Positions 1 to 13,589 of a DNA stretch of 14,426 bases are shown piece by piece. The translations under genes were made by a program, and so were the position numbers. Each line of letters begins with the position of its first letter. Position 1 is the stretch's first letter. Source of the stretch: a virus. Lineage: Duplodnaviria; Heunggongvirae; Uroviricota; Caudoviricetes. The DNA is taken from the IMG/VR virus record IMGVR_UViG_2850796239_000001; one strand, given 5' to 3'. The notes beneath the pieces are model-generated. The model saw only the letters and a list, made by a program, of their open reading frames with translations, was not told the DNA's origin and ran no database searches.

Positions 1-240
1 TTATCCGTCCTGATTTTGCATCCACTCCACCACAAAATCAGCCAGCCCCCCAACATCATTAATATCCAGTAACGCGACATCAAGATTAAGTGACACATCA
101 CTGGCTACAGCAATAACATGTCTGTCTATCACTAATTCTTCCGGTCGATGTCCGGCTCCATCGCGAAACAGCACAATCTTTGCGATCTCTTCATGCTTAA
201 ACCCTTCGACCAGAATCAAATCCAGCTTTGAGGTATCCAT
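1..240 (-). CDS. mobB: MobB (molybdopterin-guanine dinucleotide biosynthesis adapter protein), C-terminal fragment; gene interrupted by prophage insertion
   Basis: Minus-strand ORF ending at TAA (rc of 1..3). Translation MDTSKLDLILVEGFKHEEIAKIVLFRDGAGHRPEELVIDRHVIAVASDV... matches the C-terminal part of enterobacterial MobB as I recall it. In-frame similarity continues upstream of the Met to ~264 (..DLHFLASR), then ends at stop codons (265..267, 271..273 on the minus frame). Confidence 0.8.
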   Translation of the reverse strand: MDTSKLDLILVEGFKHEEIAKIVLFRDGAGHRPEELVIDRHVIAVASDVSLNLDVALLDINDVGGLADFVVEWMQNQDG

Positions 241-282
241 TCGACTTGCGAGAAAATGTAGATCCTATGACTAGGTAATTTA

Positions 283-414
283 TTCAAGATAACCGGGAAG
301 AGATTAAAAAAGACGGGATTTGGTTGGATTCAATAACTTAGCTACTAGTTGTATTCAAGATAAAATGGGCAAGGGCCGTTTAGTTTGTTCAGAACAATAA
401 AACATTCAAGATAA
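283..414 (+). repeat. Three direct copies of TTCAAGATAA near the prophage left end; candidate transposase end-binding sites (attL L1-L3 analogues)
   Basis: Exact 10-mer at 283..292, 354..363 and 405..414 in AT-rich non-coding DNA between the prophage end and the repressor gene. A related GATTCAATAA lies at 327..336, and AACCGGGAAG at 291..300 resembles AACCGGGAGG in the Mu left end. Confidence 0.4.
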
Positions 415-508
415 AGCGTCTTGTTTATTTTGACCTTTTAAAGGCTTTTAAAACTAGCTTATCAGAAGTTGTAGAAATGGACCAAGTAAGTTAAGCACAG
501 CTAGCTGA

Positions 509-1015
509 TTATATGCTAACTGCCTTGTTGGTTAGTTGGATGAGATCGGCCTCAGCTTCATTTCCCGCCAAAATCTCTCTAACCTTTTGTTCTGACAGGT
601 TATTTAGGCTTAAAGCAGCTAATCTTCGAATACCCGTTAAACTAATCAACTCTTGGTTTTCTTGGCTGCAAAATTCGAGCAACTTTTCAACACCTTTTCG
701 TTTGAGCGTATGGATCACGATCTCTTTTTCTTGTTCGCTTAGAGAATCCATTATTTTCATTAACTCATTAGCTTTTGAGGCCTTGTTTGATGGTTTGGTT
801 GCTGTTTGCAACTGACCGCTAACAATTGCAGCGACGTGTTCAGGCAAGTCTTGCAATCGGTACGCAAAGGCCCTTCCTCTAACTCCGGGTGTTGTAACTG
901 AACGTTTTTCCCACCCCTCATTTCTTGCTCGCTTATGGAGTCCTGCAAGGGATGTGGGTAAACCGCCAACACCGAGGAGTTCACTAGCAGGCACCCATTC
1001 TTGATCTTGGATCAT
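509..1015 (-). CDS. Mu c-like repressor
   Basis: 168-aa ORF divergent from ner/A. Start ATG (rc of 1013..1015) is preceded by GGGAGG (rc of ~1022..1027). N-terminal motif WVPASELLGVGGLPTSLAGLHKRARNEGWEKR is shared with the transposase N-terminus (WVPMTELASFCGLPSSLAGLHKKAKKESWQTR), as in Mu where c and MuA share a DNA-binding domain. Confidence 0.75.
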   Translation of the reverse strand: MIQDQEWVPASELLGVGGLPTSLAGLHKRARNEGWEKRSVTTPGVRGRAFAYRLQDLPEHVAAIVSGQLQTATKPSNKASKANELMKIMDSLSEQEKEIVIHTLKRKGVEKLLEFCSQENQELISLTGIRRLAALSLNNLSEQKVREILAGNEAEADLIQLTNKAVSI

Positions 1016-1146
1016 ATCAACCTCCCAATGAAATTAACCAGTTGATATTTACTTAGTTAATATCTAATATTCCAACCACACACAGTTGAGTAACTCTCGT
1101 GAGTTACACGCATGAGTCATAGAGTTTGCCATAGAAAGCGCGTGGG
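1016..1146. promoter_or_regulatory. Divergent early promoter/operator region between repressor and ner
   Basis: Intergenic position matches the Mu operator region. Nested inverted repeats TTAAC(1034..1038)/GTTAA(1056..1060) and GATAT(1044..1048)/ATATC(1060..1064); dyad GTAACTC(1090..1096)-tcgt-GAGTTAC(1101..1107). No promoter assigned. Confidence 0.4.
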
Positions 1147-1401
1147 GTGTTAATCGTGATTTTAGGTGAGGATTGGGATTCCGCTGATATCAAGGCTGAG
1201 CTTGAGAAGCGTGGTACTAATTTGTCTCGCTTATCGAGAGAAAATAATTTAAGGCCAAGAACGTTAGGTAATACTTTGCGAGTCCCCTATTTAAAGGGAG
1301 AAGGGATTATTGCGCAAGCTATTGGAGTTCAACCAGAGGTTATTTGGCCAACCAGATATGAACGTCGCTCACGGAGGAAAAATGTGGGTTCCAATGACTG
1401 A
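1147..1401 (+). CDS. ner: Ner-like DNA-binding protein (Ner/Nlp family)
   Basis: Translation ..EDWDSADIKAELEKRGTNLSRLSRENNLRPRTLGNTLRVPYLKGEGIIAQAIGVQPEVIWPTRY.. aligns with Mu Ner (..RDWHRADVIAGLKKRKLSLSALSRQ..PKGEQIIANALETKPEVIWPSRY). Start is uncertain (GTG 1147 or GTG 1156). Stop TGA at 1399..1401 overlaps the transposase start. Confidence 0.85.
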   Translation: MLIVILGEDWDSADIKAELEKRGTNLSRLSRENNLRPRTLGNTLRVPYLKGEGIIAQAIGVQPEVIWPTRYERRSRRKNVGSND

Positions 1402-2056
1402 ATTAGCTTCATTTTGTGGATTACCTAGTTCACTTGCGGGTTTGCATAAGAAAGCTAAAAAAGAGTCATGGCAGACACGTCTTAAAGCTGGGGTTAAGGG
1501 ACGTGTTGTTGAGTGCGAAATAAACTCTTTACCTATTGTTATTCAAAAGGCACTGCGTGAACGCTATGTGGCACAGTTGGTGGCTACAGAGAACAATGTT
1601 TCTGAAGTGAAAGCTGTTACCAGAAAAACACGCAATCCTGATGCTGTCCAGGCAATCGAAGCATATCGCGGTTCGCCACAACTGATGGAAGAACGCCTGA
1701 ATGCGCTGACCGAAAACCAGCGTCGGGTATCTGAAGCAAGGGCTGCGCTGGTGGTGGAAGTGCTGAAGCTGGAAAGCGCCGGTAACCTCGGGCGACTGAA
1801 AGCCATTAACTTTCTTGTTGAAAAAGCCCGTAAAGGTGAGCTGCCGGAGCGCCTGCAACAGGCCGCAGTTAACGCCAATGCAAAACGTGGCGCTAATCGT
1901 ACTATCAGCCGCGATCCACTTTACCAGTGGGTTCTGAAATACAACCAGTCGCAGAACGCCGCCGAACGGCTGCTGTTACTGGCACCGGGAAAACGCGACG
2001 AAATAAAACCGGAAGAAATCAGCTGGCTGCCTGAATTTCTGGCGCAGTATCGCTAG
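1382..2056 (+). CDS. MuA-like transposase, N-terminal DNA-binding portion, ending at an in-frame TAG
   Basis: ATG at 1382 is preceded by GGAGG (1374..1378). The ORF-track start at 1310 overlaps ner and lacks an RBS. Ends at TAG 2054..2056, in the same frame as the next ORF. Confidence 0.8.
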   Translation: MWVPMTELASFCGLPSSLAGLHKKAKKESWQTRLKAGVKGRVVECEINSLPIVIQKALRERYVAQLVATENNVSEVKAVTRKTRNPDAVQAIEAYRGSPQLMEERLNALTENQRRVSEARAALVVEVLKLESAGNLGRLKAINFLVEKARKGELPERLQQAAVNANAKRGANRTISRDPLYQWVLKYNQSQNAAERLLLLAPGKRDEIKPEEISWLPEFLAQYR

Positions 2057-3466
2057 GTGAACGGCAGACCCATGTCAGAAGCCTACGAGGATTTTGTCGC
2101 AGAATGGCAGCGTCGCCATGCGGACGAACCGTACATGCTGGAGGTGATGCCTTCCTATGATGTTGTCCGGTATGCCATGAAAAAACTGCCGGAAGTGGTG
2201 AAACAAAAAGGGCGCGTTACCGGCAGTGAATACCGTCAGCTTGAAGGATTCACCCGCCGCGACTGGACAGCTATGCCGGTGAATTATGTCTGGATTGGTG
2301 ACGGTCACGGTATGAAGCTGAAATGTGCGCATCCGATCCACGGGCGTCCATTCTCACCGGAAGTCACGTTTGTGATCGATGGTGGAACACGGTTTGTTGT
2401 TGGCTGGAGTCTTGACCTTGCCGAAAACGTGTTCGCCGTTGCCGGTGCGATACAGCACGGCATTCGCAACCACGGAAAACCGTTCCTGTATTACTCGGAT
2501 AACGGTTCCGGTGAAACGGCTGACATGCTGGACAAAGAGGTCGTGGGTATTCTGCCACGCCTGGGGATTAAACACCCTACCGGTATTGCCGGTAATCCAC
2601 AGGGACGCGGCATTATTGAACGCCTGAACCGGACACTGCCGATGCGTATAGCCAGGAGGTATCGCACCTATTTTGGCAAGGGTGCTGACCGGGAATCGTT
2701 GCGTGTACTTAACCGTGATCTGCGTTCAGCGTTTAACTCCCTGCAACAGGACAAGCCTCTGAACGACCGCCAGAAAGCGGCAATGCGCGAGCTGCCATCG
2801 TGGGCGGAGCTTATTGAGGCTATTCGTGAAGGCGTGGAATGGTACAACAACCGCCCGCATTCTGAGCTGCCGATGAAACCGAACGGACGGCATTACAGCC
2901 CGGCAGAGTTCAGAAAAAAACGCCTGGCAGAAGAAGACACCGAAATTGAGTGGCTGAGTGATCTTGAGCTGCGCGACATGTTCCGCCCAATGGTGGAACG
3001 ACCGGTAAGACGCTGCGAAATTCAGTGGCTGAACAATATTTACTACGCGCCGGAGTTGCGTGACGAACACGGTCGCAAAGTGCTTATCAGTTATGACATT
3101 CATGACGCCGAGCGAATTACGGTACGTCGCAAGGACGGCAGCTTTATCTGTGAGGCGATATGGAACGGCAATAAACGCGCAGCCTTTGCTGTCAGTGCTG
3201 AATATCACAAACAACAGCAGCGTATTAAAGGAATGCGCAAACGCGCTGAGGAAAAAATTCGTGATGCTGAAGATGAAGGTATTCAGATTCTGGAACACAA
3301 ACAGGCTGAACCCTGGCTGAGTAATGTTTATCGCCCGGTTGGTAATGTGGTGGCAGTTCAGCAACCGGAATATGAAGAAGAGCATGACGAAGAATTTGAA
3401 CGCGATTTCCGGCTGGGGATGCAAAAACTTTTTGCCATGCAGGAAGAAGATGATCCGCTGGCCTGA
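2057..3466 (+). CDS. MuA-like transposase, DDE catalytic core and C-terminal portion
   Basis: Same frame as 1382..2056 (both coordinates are 2 mod 3), directly after the TAG. Contains DDE-type motifs VWIGDGHGMK, YYSDNGSGE and AGNPQGRGIIER typical of Mu/retroviral-integrase-fold transposases. Combined length is ~695 codons, close to MuA (663 aa). Confidence 0.85.
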   Translation: MNGRPMSEAYEDFVAEWQRRHADEPYMLEVMPSYDVVRYAMKKLPEVVKQKGRVTGSEYRQLEGFTRRDWTAMPVNYVWIGDGHGMKLKCAHPIHGRPFSPEVTFVIDGGTRFVVGWSLDLAENVFAVAGAIQHGIRNHGKPFLYYSDNGSGETADMLDKEVVGILPRLGIKHPTGIAGNPQGRGIIERLNRTLPMRIARRYRTYFGKGADRESLRVLNRDLRSAFNSLQQDKPLNDRQKAAMRELPSWAELIEAIREGVEWYNNRPHSELPMKPNGRHYSPAEFRKKRLAEEDTEIEWLSDLELRDMFRPMVERPVRRCEIQWLNNIYYAPELRDEHGRKVLISYDIHDAERITVRRKDGSFICEAIWNGNKRAAFAVSAEYHKQQQRIKGMRKRAEEKIRDAEDEGIQILEHKQAEPWLSNVYRPVGNVVAVQQPEYEEEHDEEFERDFRLGMQKLFAMQEEDDPLA

Positions 3467-3474
3467 ATAAAAAA

Positions 3475-3496
3475 ACAGTCCGCGGGAACGGACTGT
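3475..3496 (+). other. Stem-loop in the A-B intergenic region
   Basis: ACAGTCCG(3475..3482)-cgggaa-CGGACTGT(3489..3496), followed by TTAAATAAA rather than a U-run; not a canonical terminator. Confidence 0.25.
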
Positions 3497-3541
3497 TAAA
3501 TAAAGGAAACAAAGCTGATTTGAAATAACCGAGGAAATACT

Positions 3542-4108
3542 ATGACTGATATTGATGATGTTTTCAACACTATTAACGCTTTGATTAACGAGGGCGACAA
3601 GTCTCAGGAAGATATTGCTGATGAAGCCGGAATGTCTCCGGCAACACTCTCGGCTCTGCGTAAAGGAGAGTACAACGGTAATGTCGAAGGTATGCATGAC
3701 AAATTACAGAAATGGTATCAGGTCTGGCAGAAGGGACAGAACTTGTCAGGTACCCCTGGTGTTGTGAAGACCCAGACATTTTGTGATTTGCATGAGCTGT
3801 TTAAAACAGTGCGCTCACTCGGGATTATCAGTGTCGTTGTTGGCGTACCGGGTGTCGGAAAAACCTTTGCTGCCCGGGAATATTGTCGCAGGACAGCTAA
3901 TGCCTGGATGGTGACTCTTGCTCCGGCACATTCGAGCGTAACGGAATGCCTCCTTGAAATAGCATATGCGCTGGAAATTAATAATCCGGGAAGAAATAAG
4001 GGGAATGTAACCCGCGCCATTCGCAGAAAACTGGGTGGTGGTAAAGAAACCAGTGGCCGTGTTAACCCCCTTCTGATTATTGATGAAGCTGAGGTGTACT
4101 GGCAATAG
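3542..4108 (+). CDS. MuB-like transposition ATPase, truncated after the Walker B motif by IS insertion
   Basis: ATG 3542 with GAGGA (3531..3535). Walker A GVPGVGKT and Walker B LLIIDEA. Aligns with Mu B (..GNPGVGKTEAAREY.. LVIIDEAD..). The last codons (EVYWQ, stop) are encoded by the IS terminus starting at 4090. The ORF is 188 aa against ~312 aa for Mu B. Confidence 0.85.
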   Translation: MTDIDDVFNTINALINEGDKSQEDIADEAGMSPATLSALRKGEYNGNVEGMHDKLQKWYQVWQKGQNLSGTPGVVKTQTFCDLHELFKTVRSLGIISVVVGVPGVGKTFAAREYCRRTANAWMVTLAPAHSSVTECLLEIAYALEINNPGRNKGNVTRAIRRKLGGGKETSGRVNPLLIIDEAEVYWQ

Positions 4109-4132
4109 CGGACACTACCATTTGTTCTTTTT

Positions 4133-4819
4133 TTAAGCAGCCATCTGATGATATTTTTCCCTGAAGGCTGCCGGGGAGATATTCCCCAGACGAGAGTGAC
4201 GACGCTGACGATTGTAGAAAATCTCAATGTATTCCCGTATTACTGAGATGGCTTCATCCCGGTTATTAAAACGATAGTGGCTCAGGCTCTCATTTTTCAG
4301 CGTTCCCCAGAAGCTTTCCATCGGAGCGTTGTCGTAACAGTTACCTTTACGCGACATTGATGTTTTCAGACCAAACTGCTCCTGTATGACCCGGTAATCG
4401 TATGCGCAGTACTGTGAACCTCGATCAGAGTGGTGGATTAGCCCGGCAGGTGGGCGCTGGCTCCTGAGCGCCATAAACAGGGCTTTACCTGTCAGCTCTT
4501 TTGTCATGCGCTCTCCCATGGCGTAGCCGACAATTTCGCACGTATAAACATCTTTGATGCCAGCGAGGTACAACCATCCCTCCTGTGTGGCAACATACGT
4601 CAGGTCCGCCACCCAGACCTGATTTGGTGCTGTAGGAGCGAACGTCTGGTTCAGCAGATTTGGCGCAACTGGCAGATTGTGGTTCGGGTTCGTAGTCGCT
4701 CTGAACTTGCGTTTCTGCTTACAGCGTAGCCTTAGCTCCTTACGAAGACGTGCCAGTCGGTCACGACCAACGATGATGCCATTCTCTGCCAGCTCCGTCT
4801 GGAGCCGCCCGGGTTCCAT
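4133..4819 (-). CDS. IS3-family transposase OrfB, C-terminal catalytic part (frame-disrupted copy)
   Basis: 228-aa ORF containing the IS3-group DDE core (..WVADLTYV.., HHSDRGSQY, SMSRKGNCYDNAPMESFWGTLKNE). It is out of frame with the orfB N-terminal segment at 4761..4952. Confidence 0.85.
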   Translation of the reverse strand: MEPGRLQTELAENGIIVGRDRLARLRKELRLRCKQKRKFRATTNPNHNLPVAPNLLNQTFAPTAPNQVWVADLTYVATQEGWLYLAGIKDVYTCEIVGYAMGERMTKELTGKALFMALRSQRPPAGLIHHSDRGSQYCAYDYRVIQEQFGLKTSMSRKGNCYDNAPMESFWGTLKNESLSHYRFNNRDEAISVIREYIEIFYNRQRRHSRLGNISPAAFREKYHQMAA

Positions 4820-4952
4820 ATGTTTCGCGAGTGCGGATATGTGCCACCTTAATCTCCAGTTTTAGCCGCTCATCACTTTGTTTTCTGTCTGAGGGTTCAT
4901 GCTGTACCCAGTTGTAATAACCGCTCCTGGATACACCAAATACCTGACACAT
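4761..4952 (-). CDS. IS3-family OrfB N-terminal segment, separated from the rest of orfB by a frame change
   Basis: MCQVFGVSRSGYYNWVQHEPSDRKQSDERLKLEIKVAHIRTRETYGT then out-of-frame tail. It lies in the -1 frame relative to orfA, as expected for programmed frameshifting, but +1 relative to 4133..4819. Confidence 0.5.
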   Translation of the reverse strand: MCQVFGVSRSGYYNWVQHEPSDRKQSDERLKLEIKVAHIRTRETYGTRAAPDGAGREWHHRWS

Positions 4953-4987
4953 CGCTTCAATGGGAAATTGTTGTCGCCATTGTTCGA

Positions 4988-5250
4988 TTAACGCGTATTT
5001 TTCAGCGACTCCTGTGCAAAATACGCTGTTGCTTTTTTTAATATATCTCGCTCAAGGCGAGCTTCATTTAACGCCTTACGCAGTTGCAGAATTTCAGATT
5101 CCAGTTCAGCCACCGTGCGGGAACCAGGAGTACCGAGCCCTTTTCTGGCGGCGGTAACCCATTGTCCTAAAGTGCCTTCAGGAAGGGATAATCGGGAAGC
5201 GCCTTCACTGATCGAAAGTTGATTTTCAAGAACCGTTCTGACAGCTTCGG
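4988..5250 (-). pseudogene. IS3-family orfA, 3' portion; the 5' portion (codons 1-15) lies at 8006..8052 on the other side of the IS66-family insertion
   Basis: Manual minus-strand translation ..VRTVLENQLSISEGASRLSLPEGTLGQWVTAARKG..LERDILKKATAYFAQESLKNTR* continues the MSRKTQRYSKEFKAEA fragment. A-run slippery site (A7 at rc of ~5033..5039) lies near the orfA end. Confidence 0.75.
5243..5250. repeat. 8-bp target-site duplication (GCTTCGGC), left copy, flanking the IS66-family element
   Basis: Identical 8-mer at 5243..5250 and 8006..8013 immediately outside the element's terminal inverted repeats. Confidence 0.9.
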
Positions 5251-5283
5251 CGTAAGCGCCCCGAGAAGTACGTAGCGTAAGGA

Positions 5284-6885
5284 TTATTTTACAGACGAGA
5301 AGTTCCAGGGCAGCAGTTCATGCACTTGGTTCGACGGCCAGTCATTGAGCTTCTCGATCACTTCGCGCAACCAGTCCTCCGGCTCCACTTCGTTCTGTTT
5401 GCAGGTGACCAGCAGACTGTAGATGATCGCCGCACTTTCTCCTCCCTTGTCTGAGCCGAAAAAGAGATAATTTTTTCTTCCAACCGCCACCGATCGTAAC
5501 GCGTTTTCACCGATGTTGTTGTCTATTTCCACCCAGCCGTCACGACAGAACTCGTTCAGCGCATTCCAGTGATTCAGGATATAGTCGAACGCCTTCGCCA
5601 TCTCCGCATGTTTCGACAGCGTTTTCCTCTGCAATTGTATCCAGTCGTACAACGACTGCATCAACTGGACGCTTCTGGCTTTTCTGACTGCAAGCCGTTC
5701 CTCTGCCGGACTGCCACGTATCTCCGCTTCTATGTCGTATAACTCTGCTATCCGTCTGAGCGCTTCCTGAGTCATTTCTGTCGGACGGCGCACATCCTCG
5801 TCATGGATTTTTCGGCGGGCGTGGGCCAGGCACCCGGCTTCCTTCACCCGGCCCGTTTCGTACAGTACGTTATAACCTGCATAGGCATCAGCCTGCAGTA
5901 CGCCCTGATACTTTGCCAGGTGGAGCTGCGGATGTTCTCCTTTGCGATCTGCCGAATACGCGAACCAGACGGCTGCCGGCAGGGATGAACCCGCATTACG
6001 ATCATCCCTGACGTATACCCACAGACGACCCGTTTTCGTCTTTCCGTTCCCCGGGGCCAGTACTTTCACCGGAGTGTCATCTGCGTGCACCTTTCCTGCC
6101 TCCAGAACATAGTCATTCAGCGCTATATACAGAGGACGGAGTTTGTCTGCCATTTCTGATACCCAGCGCACCATGGTATTACGGCTCAGCTCCACGCCCT
6201 GTCGCGCGTATATTTCTGACTGGCGATATAAAGGGATATGTTCCATATATTTGCTGACCAGGATCCGTGCAAGTAACCCTGCACTGGCATAACCGCGTTC
6301 GATCGGTTTAGGGGGAAGTGGTGCCTGAACGATGACATCACACCGGCTACAGGCCAGTTTGGGACGTATGGTTTCGATAACTTTAAAGGCGGTATTAATG
6401 ATATCCAGTTGCTCTGAGATTGTTTCCCCCATTTCTTTCAGAACACCTCCACAGGCCGGGCAACTGGTTTCAGCAGGCAGAAGGCGATGTGTCTCCCGGG
6501 GAAGTTCTGCCGGCAGCGGTTTTCGTGAAGATTTTCGTCCCGGGGATTCAGGCTTACTGGCGATCGGGTTTTCTGACGGGGGACTGGTGTCAGGTGAATC
6601 TGTGACTGACGATGCATCTTCCAGAAGATTTCTGGCTGTGTTCAGCCGGTTTTCCAGTTCCGACAGTCGTTTTTCTGCCTGTCGGATCTGATTTTCAAGC
6701 TTATGACGCTTTTTCTCTGAACTCTGGCCGAACAACATACGACGCAACCTGTCGAGTTGCGCTTTCAGCCGTTCAATTTTCTGCTCATAGCCCGCGACCT
6801 GACAGGCATACTGTCGAAGCCGACTCTGTTGCTTACGCAACATGGCTTTAAGCAGCTCAATATCATCGGGGAGTTCATTGTTCAT
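5284..6885 (-). CDS. tnpC: IS66-family transposase TnpC
   Basis: 533-aa ORF with N-terminal coiled-coil/leucine-zipper-like region, a CxxC...CxxC zinc-finger region (SCPACGG ... CSRCD) and a large catalytic domain typical of IS66 Orf3. Confidence 0.9.
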
Positions 6886-6904
6886 TCCCTTGTTTTATCA
6901 CGGG

Positions 6905-7252
6905 TTATATCCGGATGCCAGGCCGTTCTGTCCGTTTGGGATGTTGCCACGCGATCCCCTCCAGTAGCATGGATAACTGAGCTGGCGTCAGGTGCACTTT
7001 CCCTTCCCGGGTCACCGGCCAGACGAAGCGGCCCCGTTCCAGGCGTTTGGCGAACAGGCATAACCCGTCACGATCGGCCCACAGTATTTTCACCATTTTG
7101 CCACTGCGGCCCCGGAAGACGAAGATATGCCCGGAGAACGGGTCATCTTTCAGCGTGTTCTGCACCTTCGAAGCCAGGCCATTGAAGCCACAACGCATAT
7201 CTGTGATGCCAGCGATGATCCAGATTTTGGTACCGGTCGGCAGCGTTATCAT
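6905..7252 (-). CDS. tnpB: IS66-family TnpB (Orf2)
   Basis: 115-aa ORF (MITLPTGTKIWIIAGITDMRCGFNGLA...) typical of IS66 Orf2; its start overlaps the tnpA stop as ATGA at 7249..7252. Confidence 0.9.
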   Translation of the reverse strand: MITLPTGTKIWIIAGITDMRCGFNGLASKVQNTLKDDPFSGHIFVFRGRSGKMVKILWADRDGLCLFAKRLERGRFVWPVTREGKVHLTPAQLSMLLEGIAWQHPKRTERPGIRI

Positions 7253-7923
7253 CGGATACCCCCTTTCATTTCGCGGATTAGCGCCCGTAACAGTTCCGGA
7301 GTGAGAGGGTCAAACAGTTTTACCACACCTGATTTAAGATGCAGCTCGCACCGTGGGACGTTTCCGGGAGCCCCCTCAGGGCGCTCATCATGCTTGTTAC
7401 GCCAGAAGGGATTTGTAACTGGTCTGGTCGGCTCCGGCGTATCAGTCAGTGCCACCGGGACAGGCATGCATTCCTGTATGTCATCATCGCTCAGTAAGCC
7501 GTCCTCGTACTGGCTTTTCCATTTAAACAGCAGGTTATTATTGATATCGTGTTCTCTGGCGATCCGGGCAACAACAGCCCCAGGCTGTAACGCCTGCTTA
7601 GCCAGACGGACCTTAAATTCACGGCTATAGCTGGTTCGCCGTTCTTTTCGCCATGAGCCTTCTCTGATTTGAGGCTCTGTTAATTCCTTCTTTCTGTTGG
7701 CATAAAGGATGGCGTCAAGTTGAGCGAATGAAACTGAATCGGGCAATGGCCATGCGATACCGGATGCAAGAAATCGCTGAAAAAGCGTATGTATTGTGGA
7801 ATGACTGAGACCCAGACGCTGAGCGATGGCCCGGATGGTCAGTTTATCTTCAAATCTTAAACGCAGGGCATCAGGCAAATAAGAACGGAAGCAGGGAATA
7901 TCTTTTGTTGTCTGGGAATTCAT
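7249..7923 (-). CDS. tnpA: IS66-family TnpA (Orf1) with N-terminal helix-turn-helix extension
   Basis: 224-aa ORF with HTH-like segment LTIRAIAQRLGLSHSTIHTLFQRF and the IS66 Orf1-like motif RRTSYSREFKVRLAKQALQPGAVVARIAREHDINNNLLFKWKSQY. Confidence 0.85.
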   Translation of the reverse strand: MNSQTTKDIPCFRSYLPDALRLRFEDKLTIRAIAQRLGLSHSTIHTLFQRFLASGIAWPLPDSVSFAQLDAILYANRKKELTEPQIREGSWRKERRTSYSREFKVRLAKQALQPGAVVARIAREHDINNNLLFKWKSQYEDGLLSDDDIQECMPVPVALTDTPEPTRPVTNPFWRNKHDERPEGAPGNVPRCELHLKSGVVKLFDPLTPELLRALIREMKGGIR

Positions 7924-8005
7924 CGTTCGTGTCCATCAATATAGATGGGCGCGATTGTTGCCAGACAGGACAATTTTCACAAGACGTCGCTGATGGGGCG
8001 CTTAC

Positions 8006-8013
8006 GCTTCGGC
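8006..8013. repeat. 8-bp target-site duplication (GCTTCGGC), right copy
   Basis: Identical to 5243..5250; it lies within IS3-family orfA codons K-A-E-A (rc GCCGAAGC). Confidence 0.9.
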
Positions 8014-8212
8014 TTTGAACTCTTTAGAGTAACGTTGGGTTTTTCTGCTCATTATTAGCTCCTTCTGATGCCATTCTATTTCAGGAAGGAGTGTCCGTTA
8101 AACTCAGGCTACCTCATCATTCCTGACCGTATTGCCTTTCTGGTGGTGTTAACCCGCCCGGACAAAACCACACTCAGAATCGAAATCACCCGTCGATGGG
8201 AGGCCACCATTA

Positions 8213-9289
8213 ATGCCGTATGAAATCCCCACGCTGGGCAAACTGATTGCCGACGGCGAAAAAGATATTGCGTATGAACTCGGCCTGCAAAAGCTGCCGC
8301 CTGTCAGTGTTGAGCAGGCGCTGAACGTGTCATTCAGCAGTCAGGTCCGGGATTTATACGACCATCAGAGCTGGATTAAGGACCAGATAATCCCGTCCAC
8401 CACGTCTGATGATGAAACCATTATCAAAACAGCAAAGTATGAAGGGGTTATCCGCAAGCAGGCCACCTTTGCCAGCGGGCGGGTGACCTTCACCAGTCAG
8501 TCCCCCCTTCCGGCAGAAACCCGGATGCAGTCCGACACGAACCAGGTGTATCAGGTACTCACGTCCGGCGAGGTGCAGGACGGCGAGGTCACCGTCATCG
8601 TGCAGGCTGAAGAAGCCGGTGTGGCGGGCAATCTTGCTGCCGGTGCCGTACTCACCCTGCTGTCCCCGCTGCCCGGAACGGCCAGCACAGGCGCGGTGGC
8701 TGAAGGTGGCATCACCGGTGGCGCAGACACTGAATCCATCGCAGCGCTGCTGGACCGTCTGCTGTATGTGCGCCGCAATCCACCGACAGGCGGCGCGTTG
8801 CATGACTACGTGATATGGGCGCGTGAAGTGCCGGGCGTCAGCCGCGCGTGGGCGTGGGATGCATGGCACGGCCCCGGCACGGTCGGGCTGGCATGGCTTT
8901 ATGATGACCGGGAAAACATCGTGCCAACCCGCGAAGACCTGAAGACAATGGAGCAGTATCTGTTCTGCCACAAACACCCGGCCACGGGCGTGATGGTGGG
9001 TAAACCGGGCGGCATTGAGGTCTGGCCGGTACAGGTCAGGCTGAAGAAAGTCAGCATATCCATCCGTCTGACACCGGACAGCCTGGCGAACAGGAGCGCC
9101 GTCCGGGCAAACCTGACCGCGTTACAGAAGACACTGGCACCCGGTCAGACGCTGCCGGTGTCCTCGCTGCGCACGGCCATCGGTATGACGTCCGGCATCA
9201 CGGATTACTTCCTTAACATCGGGGAGGACACCACCAGTGATGTGGATGAGCTTATCACCATCGGGGAGGTGACATGGCTCACAGCGTGA
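8213..9289 (+). CDS. Baseplate J-like protein (Mu gp47 family)
   Basis: 358-aa ORF; ATG 8213 preceded by GGGAGG (8198..8203) with a TAATG overlap to an upstream frame. Size, composition and position before gp48/S/U fit the Baseplate_J family; the call is from memory of the family, not an alignment. Confidence 0.8.
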   Translation: MPYEIPTLGKLIADGEKDIAYELGLQKLPPVSVEQALNVSFSSQVRDLYDHQSWIKDQIIPSTTSDDETIIKTAKYEGVIRKQATFASGRVTFTSQSPLPAETRMQSDTNQVYQVLTSGEVQDGEVTVIVQAEEAGVAGNLAAGAVLTLLSPLPGTASTGAVAEGGITGGADTESIAALLDRLLYVRRNPPTGGALHDYVIWAREVPGVSRAWAWDAWHGPGTVGLAWLYDDRENIVPTREDLKTMEQYLFCHKHPATGVMVGKPGGIEVWPVQVRLKKVSISIRLTPDSLANRSAVRANLTALQKTLAPGQTLPVSSLRTAIGMTSGITDYFLNIGEDTTSDVDELITIGEVTWLTA

Positions 9290-9858
9290 CGGAATGGCTG
9301 GCCGCACTGCAACAGGTCATGCCACGGGGTAAGGCATGGCCGCGTGATAACGACGCGGATTTAAACCGCTTTTTAAGGGCGCTTGCAGAACGTTTAAACC
9401 GCACTGAATACGACGCCTCGCGTCTGCATGTGGAGATGCGACCGGAAACCACGCTCCGGCTGCTGCCGGAGTGGGAGCAGTATCTGGCGCTGCCGGAATG
9501 CGGAATTGCCCCCACCACCAGGGAAGCCCGCCGCCGTGCCGTGGTGGAGAAATACCGTCGCAGGGGCGGGCTGGCAACCTGGCAGACTGAAGCCGCAGCA
9601 GCGGCGCTGGGCTTCACCATTAAGGTGACAGCCGTTCTGCCGCACCACTGTCTGCGCGACTGCATGTATCCGCTGCATCCGGCGCGGTATCGCTGGATGC
9701 TGAAAGTGAACGTCCCGGGTAAAGATGCCGGGCGGTTTACCTGTATTGATGGCGTCATGACACCATTAATCAGCGAACGCACCCGTGAGCTGGAATGCCT
9801 GCTGAAGCATTACCGGCTGGCGGGCACGGAATATGAATATTATTACACCGGAGAATAA
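9274..9858 (+). CDS. Mu gp48-like tail/baseplate protein (DUF2313 family)
   Basis: 194-aa ORF overlapping the J-like gene by 16 nt; its position between baseplate J and the tail fibre matches Mu gene 48. Confidence 0.7.
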   Translation: MAHSVTEWLAALQQVMPRGKAWPRDNDADLNRFLRALAERLNRTEYDASRLHVEMRPETTLRLLPEWEQYLALPECGIAPTTREARRRAVVEKYRRRGGLATWQTEAAAAALGFTIKVTAVLPHHCLRDCMYPLHPARYRWMLKVNVPGKDAGRFTCIDGVMTPLISERTRELECLLKHYRLAGTEYEYYYTGE

Positions 9859-9861
9859 TTT

Positions 9862-10959
9862 ATGTTTTATGTGGATAACCCGACGGGTGTGCCGGTAATG
9901 CCACCTGTCGCGGCTGAATTAAGCAAAACAACGCTTTATTTCACCGAAGGCGGGAACGGTATTCCGCCCACGTATCCGGGGCCGGACTGGTTTAATATTA
10001 TTCAGTCTGAATTACTGGAAATACTCCGGCAGGCAAATATCAAACCGGATAAAAACACAACCGACCAGATTATGACAGCGCTGAAAAAACTGTTTATTAC
10101 GAACAGTGGTTCAGCCGGAGCTATTGCCGGATTAACCGGTCAGAATAATATGTTCCCGTATTTTACCGGCAAAGACACAATGGCATTAACGCCGCTCAGT
10201 GCTTTTGTTCGCGGTATTCTCGGAAAAAACAGCGCCAGCGATTTTGTTAAAGACATCGGAGCAGGCCGTGCTTTCAGTGGTTCTGTAAGTATTGGTGGCG
10301 ACAGTGGAGCCTGGACGACGGCGCAGTTTATTGACTGGCTGGATTCACAGGGAGCATTTAACCATTCTTACTGGATGTGCAAAGGCTCCTGGGCTTATGC
10401 GGGCAATAAAATCATCACCGATACCGGCTGCGGCAATATTCAGTTGGCCGGTGCAGTTGTTGAGGTAATGGGCGTCAAATCAGCCATGACCATCAGGGTG
10501 ACCACACCAACAACGGCCACGAACGGCACGACAAGCTCACAGTTCACCTACATCAACCACGGAGACGCCTACTCTCCCGGATGGCGACGTGAGTACAATA
10601 CCAGAAACAAACCAACAGCATCGGACGTGGGGGCACTCCCCGCAAACGGTAATGCGGTCTCAGCAACCAGACTCCAGACTGCCCGCAGGATTAACAATGT
10701 GCTGTTTGATGGCCCCCGCGATATCACCATCAACACCACCGAGCCCGGCGCTGTGCGTAATTTCCAGTACACCAATGAGGTGTTTTACAACCCGGGCAGT
10801 ACCACAATTACCTGGAGGTTTCGCGCACCTTCTGGCTGCCAGTTGTCAGGCATTTATGTCCAGGATACGGGAAAAAATACAGCAGACAATATCGGTGGTG
10901 TGTATTACAAACAGGCTCAGATTTATATCAATGGCGCATGGCGCTCTGTATCCGGTTAA
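9862..10959 (+). CDS. Tail fibre protein (Mu S-like)
   Basis: ATG 9862 with GGAG upstream. N-terminus MFYVDNPTGVPVMPP... resembles the Mu/P2-type tail-fibre N-terminal domain as I recall it; followed directly by a Tfa/U-type assembly gene. Confidence 0.75.
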   Translation: MFYVDNPTGVPVMPPVAAELSKTTLYFTEGGNGIPPTYPGPDWFNIIQSELLEILRQANIKPDKNTTDQIMTALKKLFITNSGSAGAIAGLTGQNNMFPYFTGKDTMALTPLSAFVRGILGKNSASDFVKDIGAGRAFSGSVSIGGDSGAWTTAQFIDWLDSQGAFNHSYWMCKGSWAYAGNKIITDTGCGNIQLAGAVVEVMGVKSAMTIRVTTPTTATNGTTSSQFTYINHGDAYSPGWRREYNTRNKPTASDVGALPANGNAVSATRLQTARRINNVLFDGPRDITINTTEPGAVRNFQYTNEVFYNPGSTTITWRFRAPSGCQLSGIYVQDTGKNTADNIGGVYYKQAQIYINGAWRSVSG

Positions 10960-10973
10960 TTAAGGAGAAAATA

Positions 10974-11504
10974 ATGGAACTCAGAAATGTTACGCGTTAT
11001 TACCCTGAAGGTATGCCTTATGGTGAAGGCATTCAGTATTTCCGCAGTGAAGACGGGCAGGACTTTTATGAATCCCTGGATAAATTCACGAAGAAATACA
11101 AGCTGTGCACGCATCCTGAAACCGGCGTGATTTATTCGATGGCGGAAGACGTATCCCGTCTTTATCCCGTTGGTTTTACCATTGTGGAAGTGGATGAACT
11201 GCCGGAAGGCTTTGGCATTGAAGTCTGCTGGTATTATAAAAACGGCGAAGTTCTTCCTGTTCCTGTTGATTATTTGCGGCTGGCAGAAAAACAGCGCCAG
11301 AGCCTGCTGAATGAAGCAAGGGACATCACCTCCGACTGGAAAACCGAGCTGGAGCTGGGCACCATCAGCGACGATGACAAAGCCCGTCTTACACAGTGGA
11401 TGGCGTATATCAGGGAGGTAAAGACACTGGATTTAAGCACCGTTACTGACGAAGCCTCCTTTAATTCCATCAACTGGCCGGAGCGTCCCGATGCCGCAGC
11501 TTAA
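10974..11504 (+). CDS. Tail fibre assembly protein (Mu U / Tfa family)
   Basis: ATG 10974 with TAAGGAG (10960..10966); the ORF-track start at 10938 is upstream of the RBS. C-terminal motif ..GTISDDDKARLTQWMAYIREVKTLDLS.. matches the conserved Tfa/U motif (Mu U ..GIISDENKQKLTEWMLYAQKV..). Confidence 0.85.
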   Translation: MELRNVTRYYPEGMPYGEGIQYFRSEDGQDFYESLDKFTKKYKLCTHPETGVIYSMAEDVSRLYPVGFTIVEVDELPEGFGIEVCWYYKNGEVLPVPVDYLRLAEKQRQSLLNEARDITSDWKTELELGTISDDDKARLTQWMAYIREVKTLDLSTVTDEASFNSINWPERPDAAA

Positions 11505-12543
11505 AGGTGTGATAAAAACGCCCACGGGAGAACCGCTGGGCGGCGCAACCATTACACTGACCTCCCTGCACAATCGTGCAGGGATCCTGAAAAGTGTTTT
11601 CAGCCACGTCACCACACAGAGTGGAGAGTACGACTTCCCTGTTCTGCCGGGCGTGTACAGCGTTCGTCTGACACAGAGTGCACAGTGCCTTTCAGAAATC
11701 GGTGTCATCCGCGTTTATGAAGATTCAACGGACGGTTCGCTGAATGATTTTCTGGGCGCAACTGATATTGACCTGCGTCCGGAATCCCTGAAGAAATTCG
11801 AAGAGCTGGCGCAACAGGCGCAGCAGAGCGCCGGGGCCGCAGCCGGAAACGCACAGCAGACGGCGCAGGATGTGGCGGCAGCCGCAACGGCCCGTGATGA
11901 TGCACAACGTTTTGCGGAGAAAGCCCGACAGGATGCAACCGTCACAGCTGAGGACAGAAAGGCCACTGCGGAAGATGTGACAAGCACAGGAGCAAATGCA
12001 GCCGCAGCCGGACAGAGCGCACAGGATGCCGCAGGTTATGCCCGCGCAGCAGAACAGGCCAAAAATGACATTGATGCTGCGCTGACCGGCACTCTGAAAA
12101 TGGCTAACCATCTGTCAGAAATCGCAGCAGCAGGCGAAAAGGCACAACAGAAGTCCCGGGATAATCTGAGGCTGAAAAGTGCGGCCACGATGGAAGCACA
12201 GAGCGACATTTACGACCGGACAAAAGGCCGTCTGGCGATACCCGGCGCATTCGGCTTTGGGTGTGCTTTTCTGCCTGAAGATGTTATCCGTTTTGACACT
12301 AAGAGTGATTTCCTGGCCTGGGTAAGGAATGCGCTGCCAGGTGAATATTCCGTTGCTGGCCCCTACGGCATCATCATACCCGACACACGGTTTGAAGGGG
12401 GGCTCAGCATCCGGTGGACTGATGCACGCCCTGAGACAAGGGAACCGCGGTACAGAGCCAAATCCCTTACTTTTTACGGCATTAACGGCCCCATTTATCA
12501 CACCCGCTACTGCTACTGGCCCATATCCAGACTGACTGGGTGA
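11491..12543 (+). CDS. Side tail fibre protein (lambda Stf-like N-terminal domain with Ala/Gln-rich shaft)
   Basis: N-terminus ..KGVIKTPTGEPLGGATITLTS...GVYSVRLTQ...IRVYEDSTDGSLNDFLGA.. parallels the lambda Stf N-terminus (..SGVLKDGTGKPVQNCTIQLKA...GQYSVILQ...ITVYEDSQPGTLNDFLCA..). Followed by an AQQ/AAA-rich repeat region and the ..LSEIAAAGEKAQQKSRDNLRL.. motif common in fibres. Confidence 0.75.
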   Translation: MPQLKGVIKTPTGEPLGGATITLTSLHNRAGILKSVFSHVTTQSGEYDFPVLPGVYSVRLTQSAQCLSEIGVIRVYEDSTDGSLNDFLGATDIDLRPESLKKFEELAQQAQQSAGAAAGNAQQTAQDVAAAATARDDAQRFAEKARQDATVTAEDRKATAEDVTSTGANAAAAGQSAQDAAGYARAAEQAKNDIDAALTGTLKMANHLSEIAAAGEKAQQKSRDNLRLKSAATMEAQSDIYDRTKGRLAIPGAFGFGCAFLPEDVIRFDTKSDFLAWVRNALPGEYSVAGPYGIIIPDTRFEGGLSIRWTDARPETREPRYRAKSLTFYGINGPIYHTRYCYWPISRLTG

Positions 12544-12893
12544 AAATAAATATAGCCACAGAAGATATTATTTACAGAATCGTGGCGAGCTCTGTCCGCA
12601 ACAGATGGGGAGACCCTGACATTGGCGGGCTGATTATTGCTGCGTACCAGGGAAAAGCTGACGGTGATAAAGACATCAGACTTGTCAGGGGGCGGTCATA
12701 CAGAGGCTCACGACTGGGACCGGTGGGGATTTCAGCGCCCTGTACTCCCACCGGAACGCATATAGTATACCCACAATATTTCATTACGGGATGTTCAGAG
12801 CATTCATTACCGGGGTCATATTGCGCCCTGTCCGGGGTGCCGGATACATATGTCTCTGGCGCAATGCTTGGGCTTTTTATTCGCACATCGTGA
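12540..12893 (+). CDS. Hypothetical ORF of uncertain reality (possible fibre distal fragment or accessory gene)
   Basis: GTG-initiated 117-codon ORF overlapping the Stf stop (GTGA) and the next gene's start region. No recognisable family; the C-terminal half has atypical composition. Confidence 0.25.
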   Translation: MKINIATEDIIYRIVASSVRNRWGDPDIGGLIIAAYQGKADGDKDIRLVRGRSYRGSRLGPVGISAPCTPTGTHIVYPQYFITGCSEHSLPGSYCALSGVPDTYVSGAMLGLFIRTS

Positions 12894-12903
12894 GGAATGC
12901 ACT

Positions 12904-13470
12904 GTGGAAATTAAAAAAATCATTAATCCCCGTTATACCGAAAGTGGCGCAGTAGACTGTGACGTTTTTTTTGACGACAGGGACCAGGCAGTCCCCTACA
13001 CAGCCACCGCTGATGATGTCGCTCCGACGGGTCAGCAAATCTGGCAGGAACTGCAAAGCGGCAAATGGGGTGAGATAGCCCCATTCACTGTGACACCAGA
13101 AATGCTGGAAGCGGCCAGAGAGGCCAGACGTCAGGAAATTGAAGCATGGCGCACAGAACAGGAGGCGAAGCCGTTCACGTTTGAATGGAACGGTCGTATC
13201 TGGAATGCTGGCCCCGACTCACTGGGCCGCCTGTCCCCGGTAGTCATGCTGGCAAAATCTGTCACAGCACAAACACATATGGCGTGGAGCGATGCGGATA
13301 ATCAGCAGGTGCAGCTGACGACGCAGGAACTTGAGGAACTGGCCACAGCGATGATGCAGGCCATTGTTGAGCGCAACGATGAGATTTATCGCTGTCAGCG
13401 GGAGATGAAAGAACAACTTTCTCTGTTGCCCACACTGGACGAGGTGAGAGCGTTCAGACCAGGCGATTAA
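12904..13470 (+). CDS. Putative tail fibre assembly/chaperone protein (second, non-U type)
   Basis: ORF 12850..13470 in the track; preferred start GTG 12904 with GAGGAA (12892..12897). Position immediately after a fibre gene; the C-terminal region resembles prophage tail-fibre chaperone-like proteins, but this is a weak call from memory. Confidence 0.5.
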   Translation: MEIKKIINPRYTESGAVDCDVFFDDRDQAVPYTATADDVAPTGQQIWQELQSGKWGEIAPFTVTPEMLEAAREARRQEIEAWRTEQEAKPFTFEWNGRIWNAGPDSLGRLSPVVMLAKSVTAQTHMAWSDADNQQVQLTTQELEELATAMMQAIVERNDEIYRCQREMKEQLSLLPTLDEVRAFRPGD

Positions 13471-13492
13471 ATAATCAGTTTGTATAGTTTAT

Positions 13493-13520
13493 GACGATCG
13501 ATAGCATCATATCGATCGTC
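13493..13520. promoter_or_regulatory. Perfect palindrome with two GATC (Dam) sites upstream of com-mom; candidate methylation-sensitive repressor-binding region
   Basis: GACGATCGATA-gcatca-TATCGATCGTC (11-nt arms); GATC at 13496..13499 and 13514..13517. In Mu, a GATC cluster upstream of Pmom mediates Dam/OxyR control. Confidence 0.5.
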
Positions 13521-13545
13521 GGTTTGCATCAAGTGTGATTAAATA

Positions 13546-13589
13546 CCCCCAGCCCTCCGGGCAGCGATATCCTGTTATTACACTGGGGG
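13546..13589. promoter_or_regulatory. GC-rich dyad CCCCCAG-N30-CTGGGGG just upstream of com; candidate late-activator (Mu C-type) site or RNA structure
   Basis: CCCCCAG at 13546..13552 and its reverse complement CTGGGGG at 13583..13589; the right arm overlaps the com Shine-Dalgarno (GGGGGA, 5 nt before ATG 13595). Confidence 0.35.

Follow-up and report, generated by a model that had tools for sequence, protein, structure and literature searches.

An IS600 element carrying ISSfl3 bounds a 24-kb deletion in a Mu-like prophage of Shigella boydii

The stretch analyzed here, called the window, is the 14,426-nucleotide (nt) IMG/VR virus record IMGVR_UViG_2850796239_000001, which holds the remnant of a Mu-like prophage. 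The prophage has lost its center. About 24.2 kb is missing between the MuB-like gene B and the baseplate gene 46, and the end points of the loss lie exactly at the two termini of an insertion sequence (IS), IS600. The 4,027-bp block that joins the two prophage arms (4090-8116) is an IS600 interrupted by a complete ISSfl3 of the IS66 family, not one IS3-family element, and no target duplication flanks it. We infer both the route of the deletion, most likely recombination between two IS600 copies, and the order of the events. The window matches CP026875.1 (assembly GCA_002950355.1, Shigella boydii) at 100% over 14,108 aligned bases. The features at the deletion are these:

3542-4089, within the plus-strand left arm: B' (MuB-like), 548 of 951 nt kept
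4090-5251, minus strand: right-hand 1,162 bp of IS600 (IS3 family), with the right inverted repeat and orfB (NCBIfam transpos_IS3, 281.8 bits; 99.2-99.98% to annotated 1,264-bp copies)
5252-8005, minus strand: complete ISSfl3 (IS66 family), 2,754 bp (Pfam DDE_Tnp_IS66, 2.5e-101; TnpB_IS66, 5.4e-39)
8006-8116, minus strand: left-hand 111 bp of IS600, with the left inverted repeat and orfA up to codon ~15 (100% to IS600 nt 1-111)
8117-8223, plus strand: last 107 nt of gene 46 (baseplate), first 346 nt missing; translation IPDRIAFLVVLTRPDKTTLRIEITRRWEATINAV and a stop, equal to residues 117-150 of VL40 GP46
8213-9289, plus strand: gene 47 (baseplate J-like), intact (Baseplate_J, 4.7e-60; Phage_Mu_Gp48 next)

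A central deletion with its end points at IS600 termini

On the left side, the open reading frame (ORF) at 3542-4108 encodes 183 native MuB-like residues ending in ...NPLLIIDEA, followed by the IS-derived residues EVYWQ and a stop. The full-length B of relatives has 316 amino acids (aa) and runs on as ...IIDEADHLSV. B' keeps the Walker A (GVPGVGKT) and Walker B (LLIIDEA) motifs and lacks residues 184-316, including Phage-MuB_C (PF09077), so that it does not hold the complete AAA+ module and C-terminal DNA-binding domain of a MuB protein. On the right side, the phage sequence restarts at 8117, 96 nt before gene 47, and the 34 codons of the gene-46 remnant encode, with no difference, the C-terminal residues of the 150-aa GP46 of E. 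coli strain VL40. Gene 47 is the first complete gene of the right arm, which extends to com/mom at the window end, and in many genomes the exact gene 47 protein follows an intact gp46. The initial annotation had described the MuB-like frame as intact through IIDEA up to an IS terminus at 4090, and the phage as resuming at 8117, 96 bp upstream of a baseplate J-like gene. The ORF translation, the IS600 alignment and the gene 47 start at 8213 confirm this description, and all of its coordinates are correct. VL40 GP46 exactly bears out its prediction of a match between 8117-8212 and the 3' end of a gene-46 homologue.

At the DNA level, Mu, D108 and SfMu match the window only in com/mom (87-88% identity), with a part of A matching in some Yersinia phages; much closer E. 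coli prophages served for the comparison instead. The intact references were the prophages of VL40 (NZ_CM177011.1; between cusS and a vgrG gene) and FDAARGOS_943 (NZ_CP065615.1; molR region). Both share with the window the gene order c, ner, A, B ... 46, 47, 48, fibers, com, mom, and they align to it at 99.5-99.6% over 1546-4092 and at 99.0-99.2% over 8114-10246, identities at which chance is no concern. The two breakpoints are 24,198 bp apart in VL40 (3665179-3689376; L001 6180-30377) and ~24.3 kb apart in FDAARGOS_943. The VL40 interval contains the 3' 403 nt of B, 39 annotated coding sequences (CDS) and the 5' 346 nt of gene 46, with a gene order equal to that of Mu. The 39 lost CDS include early genes (kil-like, gam, gp16/GemA and a Mor-family activator), the lysis gene for a GH108 endolysin, head genes (terminase, portal, head protease and major head protein), and tail and baseplate genes (sheath, tube, tape measure, DNA-circularization protein, gp44 and gp45). 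These relatives support the earlier proposal that the genes between B and gene 47 are missing. With the missing DNA restored and the IS block taken out, the prophage measures ~34.5 kb. Besides the central 24.2 kb, the window differs from the two references in its immunity region (1-1545), in a fiber segment (10247-11427) and in an amber codon in A.

IS600 is flanked by agc (4087-4089) on the left and by tca (8117-8119) on the right, two trinucleotides that agree at no position. The 3-bp target duplication is absent at the window IS600, as first proposed, and this holds after the boundaries were corrected against reference IS600 copies. Clean 3-bp duplications are found at other IS600 copies, CCG in L002 and GGC in pINV L008, and therefore the missing one is meaningful. 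It indicates a secondary rearrangement and leaves the identity of the IS600 unaffected.

The IS600 termini also show 3-bp identity with the deleted phage DNA at both junctions (4090-4092 and 8114-8116). The deleted sequence starts with TGA at the B junction and ends with TCA at the gene-46 junction, like the IS ends, so that BLAST alignments pass the breakpoints by 3 bp per side. The TCA on the gene-46 side lies inside a CATCATCAT run ((CAT)3), which makes a match there unsurprising. The TGA match at the B junction would be a 1-in-64 coincidence, and both matches are probably due to chance. A target-site preference of IS600 was sought to explain the identities, and no TGA/TCA pattern was seen in the two clean insertions available, which are a small sample.

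The insert: IS600 with a nested ISSfl3

Elements of the IS3 family carry orfA, with a helix-turn-helix, and orfB, with a DDE (rve) domain, joined by a programmed -1 frameshift. In the window, the IS600 ends are fixed at 4090 and 8116 by alignment to two independent 1,264-bp IS600 copies; the letters from 4090 read TGAGGTGTACTGGC... and those ending at 8116 read ...CAGGCTACCTCA, which are the two termini. The two IS600 segments (4090-5251 and 8006-8116) align end to end with the 1,264-bp copies annotated in RefSeq, at 99.2-100% identity, and on an uninterrupted IS600 their alignments share 8 bp. Removing ISSfl3 in silico leaves a 1,265-bp element with the ends TGAGGTAGCC... and ...GTACACCTCA, which has the ~1.26-kb size and the TG...CA inverted repeats of IS3/IS600, an rve domain (2.5e-26) and an orfA of 100 aa that is readable again. 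In its 1,264-bp unit, its TGAGGT...ACCTCA ends and its orfA/orfB layout, the element is the IS600 known from Shigella and enteroinvasive E. coli. It differs from the standard IS600 by the missing 3-bp duplication, by the ISSfl3 in orfA and by a +1 frameshift in orfB. This frameshift comes from an extra G in a G-run near 4810, compared with two other IS600 copies, and leaves an orfB of 228 aa instead of 272 aa; the extra G may have arisen by mutation or be a sequencing error in the homopolymer. Since orfA is disrupted by ISSfl3 and orfB by the frameshift, this IS600 copy is unable to make its own transposase.

The nested element has the following parts:

5244-5251 (left copy) and 8006-8013 (second copy): 8-bp target duplication of ISSfl3, gcttcggc, read directly from the sequence
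5284-6885, minus strand: tnpC, 533 aa, DDE_Tnp_IS66
6905-7252, minus strand: tnpB, 115 aa
7249-7923, minus strand: tnpA, 224 aa

All three genes are full length, in the tnpA-tnpB-tnpC layout of ISSfl3, which is the RefSeq name for the matching copies, and their NCBIfam matches are transpos_IS66, IS66_TnpB and IS66_access_TnpA. The termini are GTAAGCGCCCC... and ...GGGGCGCTTAC (gtaagcgcccc and ggggcgcttac), that is, terminal repeats of the GTAAGCG type. With 99.6-99.8% identity to annotated copies and the 8-bp duplication, the element shows nothing notable that sets it apart from ISSfl3. The identical 2,754-bp unit is found in mobB in six related genomes, where another octamer is duplicated around it; this confirms the limits of ISSfl3. 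ISSfl3 therefore entered the orfA of IS600 by transposition, near codon 15. The block had initially been taken for an IS3-family insertion; that name fits IS600, and the block also holds the complete IS66-family ISSfl3. A test of whether an IS600::ISSfl3 composite recurs and moves as one unit gave no evidence of its mobility, as the best E. coli matches, in pINV plasmids and in the FDAARGOS_943 chromosome, are built otherwise (an ISSfl3 that holds an IS600, or an ISSfl3 next to a truncated IS600). The pINV plasmids thus nest the two elements inversely, with IS600 within ISSfl3, whereas ISSfl3 lies within IS600 in the window.

The remnant, its host site and its relatives

The Mu-like prophage splits the host gene mobB, which where uninterrupted reads ...tgtagATCCAgctc..., and the prophage starts at ~266 of the window. 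The window stops within mom, ~125 bp before the right end of the prophage. In the source genome, the other mobB fragment follows on the right, then mobA, yihD and dsbA up to polA, and both prophage termini are still in place inside mobB. Mu-like phages are expected to insert at random sites and to duplicate 5 bp of host DNA. The flanks of the mobB prophage have ATCC in common, with T as the fifth base on the left and A on the right (window 261-270; L021 ~14690). The termini are TA...TA in the mobB prophage and TG...CA in Mu. Related Mu-like prophages occupy differing chromosomal sites: cusS/vgrG, molR, zraS and mobB. The left part of the window contains:

1-265, minus strand: 3' part of host mobB (99.6% identity to mobB in 5,426 of the 5,426 E. 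coli genomes searched)
266-4089, plus strand: left arm of the Mu-like prophage (Pfam HTH_Tnp_Mu_1, Mu-transpos_C and AAA_22; identity to the intact prophages as given above for 1546-4092)
509-1015, minus strand: repressor c
1147-1401, within the plus-strand left arm: ner
~1382-3466, within the plus-strand left arm: transposase A, with an amber codon at 2054-2056

The early order c-ner-A-B, with a Mu-type transposase and a MuB-type AAA+ ATPase, and the late region ending in com/mom identify the prophage as Mu-like. Codon 2054-2056 of A is CAG in intact relatives and an in-frame TAG (amber) in the window and in L003-L006; in the window, A is called as two pieces, of 224 and 464 aa. The amber codon inactivates the prophage a second time, and independently. 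The truncated B has the protein records WP_000129605.1 / EFW56591.1, from Shigella boydii strains that include ATCC 9905. When full-length B was used as a query for B fragments, the sole close fragment, P0005 (177 aa), proved to be a simple frameshift in an otherwise intact prophage.

The prophage in the window is a mosaic. The segments 1-1545 (c, ner and the 5' end of A) and 10247-11427 are unrelated or weakly similar to VL40 and FDAARGOS_943, and for the immunity region a prophage of E. coli RM9088 gives 95% identity. In the right arm, a 4-bp deletion at ~12529 relative to VL40 frameshifts the second tail-fiber gene, which has 468 aa in VL40 and is divided in the window into frames of 350 and 117 aa (11491-12543 and 12540-12893).

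The exact repressor protein of the window prophage is present in eight complete genomes, six of which (L023, L024, L026, L027, L029 and L030) align without a break over the mobB-prophage junction (window 192-1052). In these six, A has 669-694 codons and B extends past 4092, with a length of 316 aa in L024, L026, L029 and L030 and of 276 aa in L023 and L027. The shared mobB junction together with a B that passes the breakpoint shows that the mobB insertion is ancestral and that the truncation of B and the amber codon in A came later. The deleted state is therefore derived in the window lineage. Several other assemblies and read sets (L004-L007) also have this B::IS600 junction and this amber codon, so that they belong to the lineage and are no product of assembly.

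The six junction-sharing genomes have rearrangements of their own. ISSfl3 lies ~70 bp after B, with an IS600 inside that ISSfl3, and distant chromosomal genes of the yihN region follow; this joining of B to the yihN region via ISSfl3/IS600 suggests IS-mediated inversions. The same six genomes also hold a complete ISSfl3 in the mobB fragment (~10825-13578), whose 8-bp duplication is that of window 192-199. A sister prophage with the same repressor occupies the zraP/zraS site in L028 (CP026877.1, 1904-10750). It shows an independent, larger loss bounded by IS600/ISSfl3, which spans from just after B to the equivalent of window position 12796, and its host flanks mismatch for a simple insertion. 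This prophage family has thus been a repeated target of IS600 and ISSfl3. In the draft contig L004 (AERN01000031.1, 4600-6971; S. boydii ATCC 9905), the same B::IS600 junction leads through an uninterrupted IS600 to a lambdoid small-terminase gene with the flank GCC. This join may be a real alternative rearrangement or an artefact of repeat collapse or chimerism, and we do not rely on it. We also dropped L004 as proof that the B junction predates the gene-46 junction, because a draft contig that passes through a multicopy IS may be chimeric.

How the deletion may have arisen

In the history that we favor, a Mu-like prophage of ~34.5 kb would have integrated in mobB in the ancestor of a Shigella boydii-type strain group. 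IS600 (1,264 bp, with a 3-bp duplication) would have come to occupy both gene B and gene 46 in the same orientation, and homologous recombination between the two direct copies would have looped out 24.2 kb together with one IS copy. The surviving IS600 would then be a hybrid, with its left flank AGC from the insertion in B and its right flank TCA from the insertion in gene 46. ISSfl3 also transposed into orfA of IS600, with its 8-bp duplication, which may have happened before or after the deletion. The outcome is a dead prophage remnant with both ends in mobB and 39 genes gone. We hold recombination between two IS600 copies to be the most likely route, with moderate confidence.

IS3-family elements transpose by copy-out-paste-in via a circle, and the reaction itself removes no flanking DNA. 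In IS150, which is also of the IS3 family, adjacent deletions were shown to arise by a new insertion followed by recombination between the two copies (PMC4173774), and an IS600 x IS600 deletion was seen experimentally on the Shigella virulence plasmid (PMC5629016). The two-copy route is favored by these three points. The pathogenicity-island loss between two IS600 copies on Shigella pINV (PMC5629016) and the IS150 rbs deletions of E. coli B (PMC4173774) resemble the window case in a large deletion, a single surviving IS3-family copy and unmatched flanks. They differ from it in that the target here is a Mu-like prophage, and in that those events were observed whereas this one is reconstructed by comparison. 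Five IS have expanded in every Shigella species, and IS600 is one of them (PMC7373316). In related loci, IS600 copies are mostly without matching flanks, and two inverted copies in L029 show swapped CCG flanks, which shows that IS600 copies often exchange with one another in these genomes. The collinearity of the prophage arms, with both ends in mobB, also counts for recombination between two copies.

Several points weigh against this reading. No intermediate was found, that is, neither a simple IS600 in B with an AGC duplication nor one in gene 46 with a TCA duplication. Four exact-junction scans for the corresponding hypothetical junctions (IS600 end, AGC and the rest of B; gene 46, TCA and IS600 end) in collections of metagenomes and species-representative genomes were empty, a result that is uninformative because these collections hold few Shigella isolates. 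IS600 variants are too few to expose a hybrid origin, and the final product is the same as that of a one-step transposase-mediated deletion, so that the structure cannot discriminate between the two. In addition, the loss of the 24 kb is established at the prophage locus of CP026875.1, not for the chromosome as a whole. The initial annotation had offered either an IS-mediated adjacent deletion or recombination of two IS copies. An IS-linked deletion is supported, and the choice between these two is not settled by the product, with two copies favored.

In a one-step adjacent deletion, the transposase of a single IS600 in B or gene 46 would join one IS end to a distant site, and 24.2 kb would be lost with no second copy. 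This would yield exactly what is seen, namely one IS with intact termini and no target duplication, and we regard it as a credible but rather unlikely course. The copy-out-paste-in reaction of IS3 elements is unlike the cointegrate-type reaction that is established behind the adjacent deletions of IS1, IS26 and Tn3. The 3-bp matches, TGA at B and TCA at gene 46, could reflect pseudo-ends; however, the right match is expected from the (CAT)3 run, so that only the left 1-in-64 coincidence is left to keep this route open. Moreover, orfA and orfB are now broken, and IS600 would have had to act before these lesions or with a transposase supplied in trans. The specific form of this event, in which the transposase joined the IS end to a distant pseudo-end and left the 3-bp identities as its trace, seems improbable to us. 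If true, it would mean that an IS3-family copy-out-paste-in element directly makes large adjacent deletions in Shigella genome reduction.

Also improbable is a relocation, in which inversions or translocations among at least three IS600 copies united B' and the gene-46 remnant and the 24 kb survives elsewhere in the chromosome. The relatives with the mobB prophage, whose IS600/ISSfl3-bounded rearrangements link B to the yihN region, and the L004 contig, in which the B::IS600 junction of the window leads to a gene for a lambdoid terminase, are consistent with such events. However, the arms of the window prophage are collinear, in the same orientation and bracketed by the two mobB halves, which a single inversion cannot give, and the exact gp47 protein is reported at one place only in CP026875.1. 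L004 itself may be a repeat collapse, as its IS600 is without ISSfl3 and the extra G, like a consensus of many copies. An IS-independent deletion with a later IS600 insertion exactly at the scar, or a phage type in which B is naturally beside the baseplate genes, has nothing in its favor beyond the bare architecture, and we consider both highly improbable. An insertion at a scar would leave a 3-bp duplication, yet the flanks differ at all three positions. B is cut in mid-domain, with loss of Phage-MuB_C, and gene 46 is broken off at codon 116 of its 150. Natural adjacency had been named at the outset as the finding that would overturn the deletion, and relatives with 99-99.6% flank identity instead carry the full set of early, lysis, head and tail genes between B and the baseplate genes. 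The intact relatives, the junction flanks and the gene-46 alignment already refute these two explanations.

IS600, ISSfl3 and Mu-like prophages are known and routinely annotated, and the window adds no new element or mechanism. IS-bounded prophage deletion is a well-described part of Shigella genome reduction, and the window shows an ordinary case of prophage decay driven by insertion sequences. In annotation, the pseudogenes to mark are A, B and gene 46, and the insert is IS600::ISSfl3; the junction could serve as a lineage marker. With its five lesions, the IS-bounded 24-kb deletion, the nested IS, the amber codon in A, the fiber-gene frameshift and the IS frameshift, the remnant provides a clean, fully resolved example of IS elements dismantling a prophage during Shigella genome reduction.

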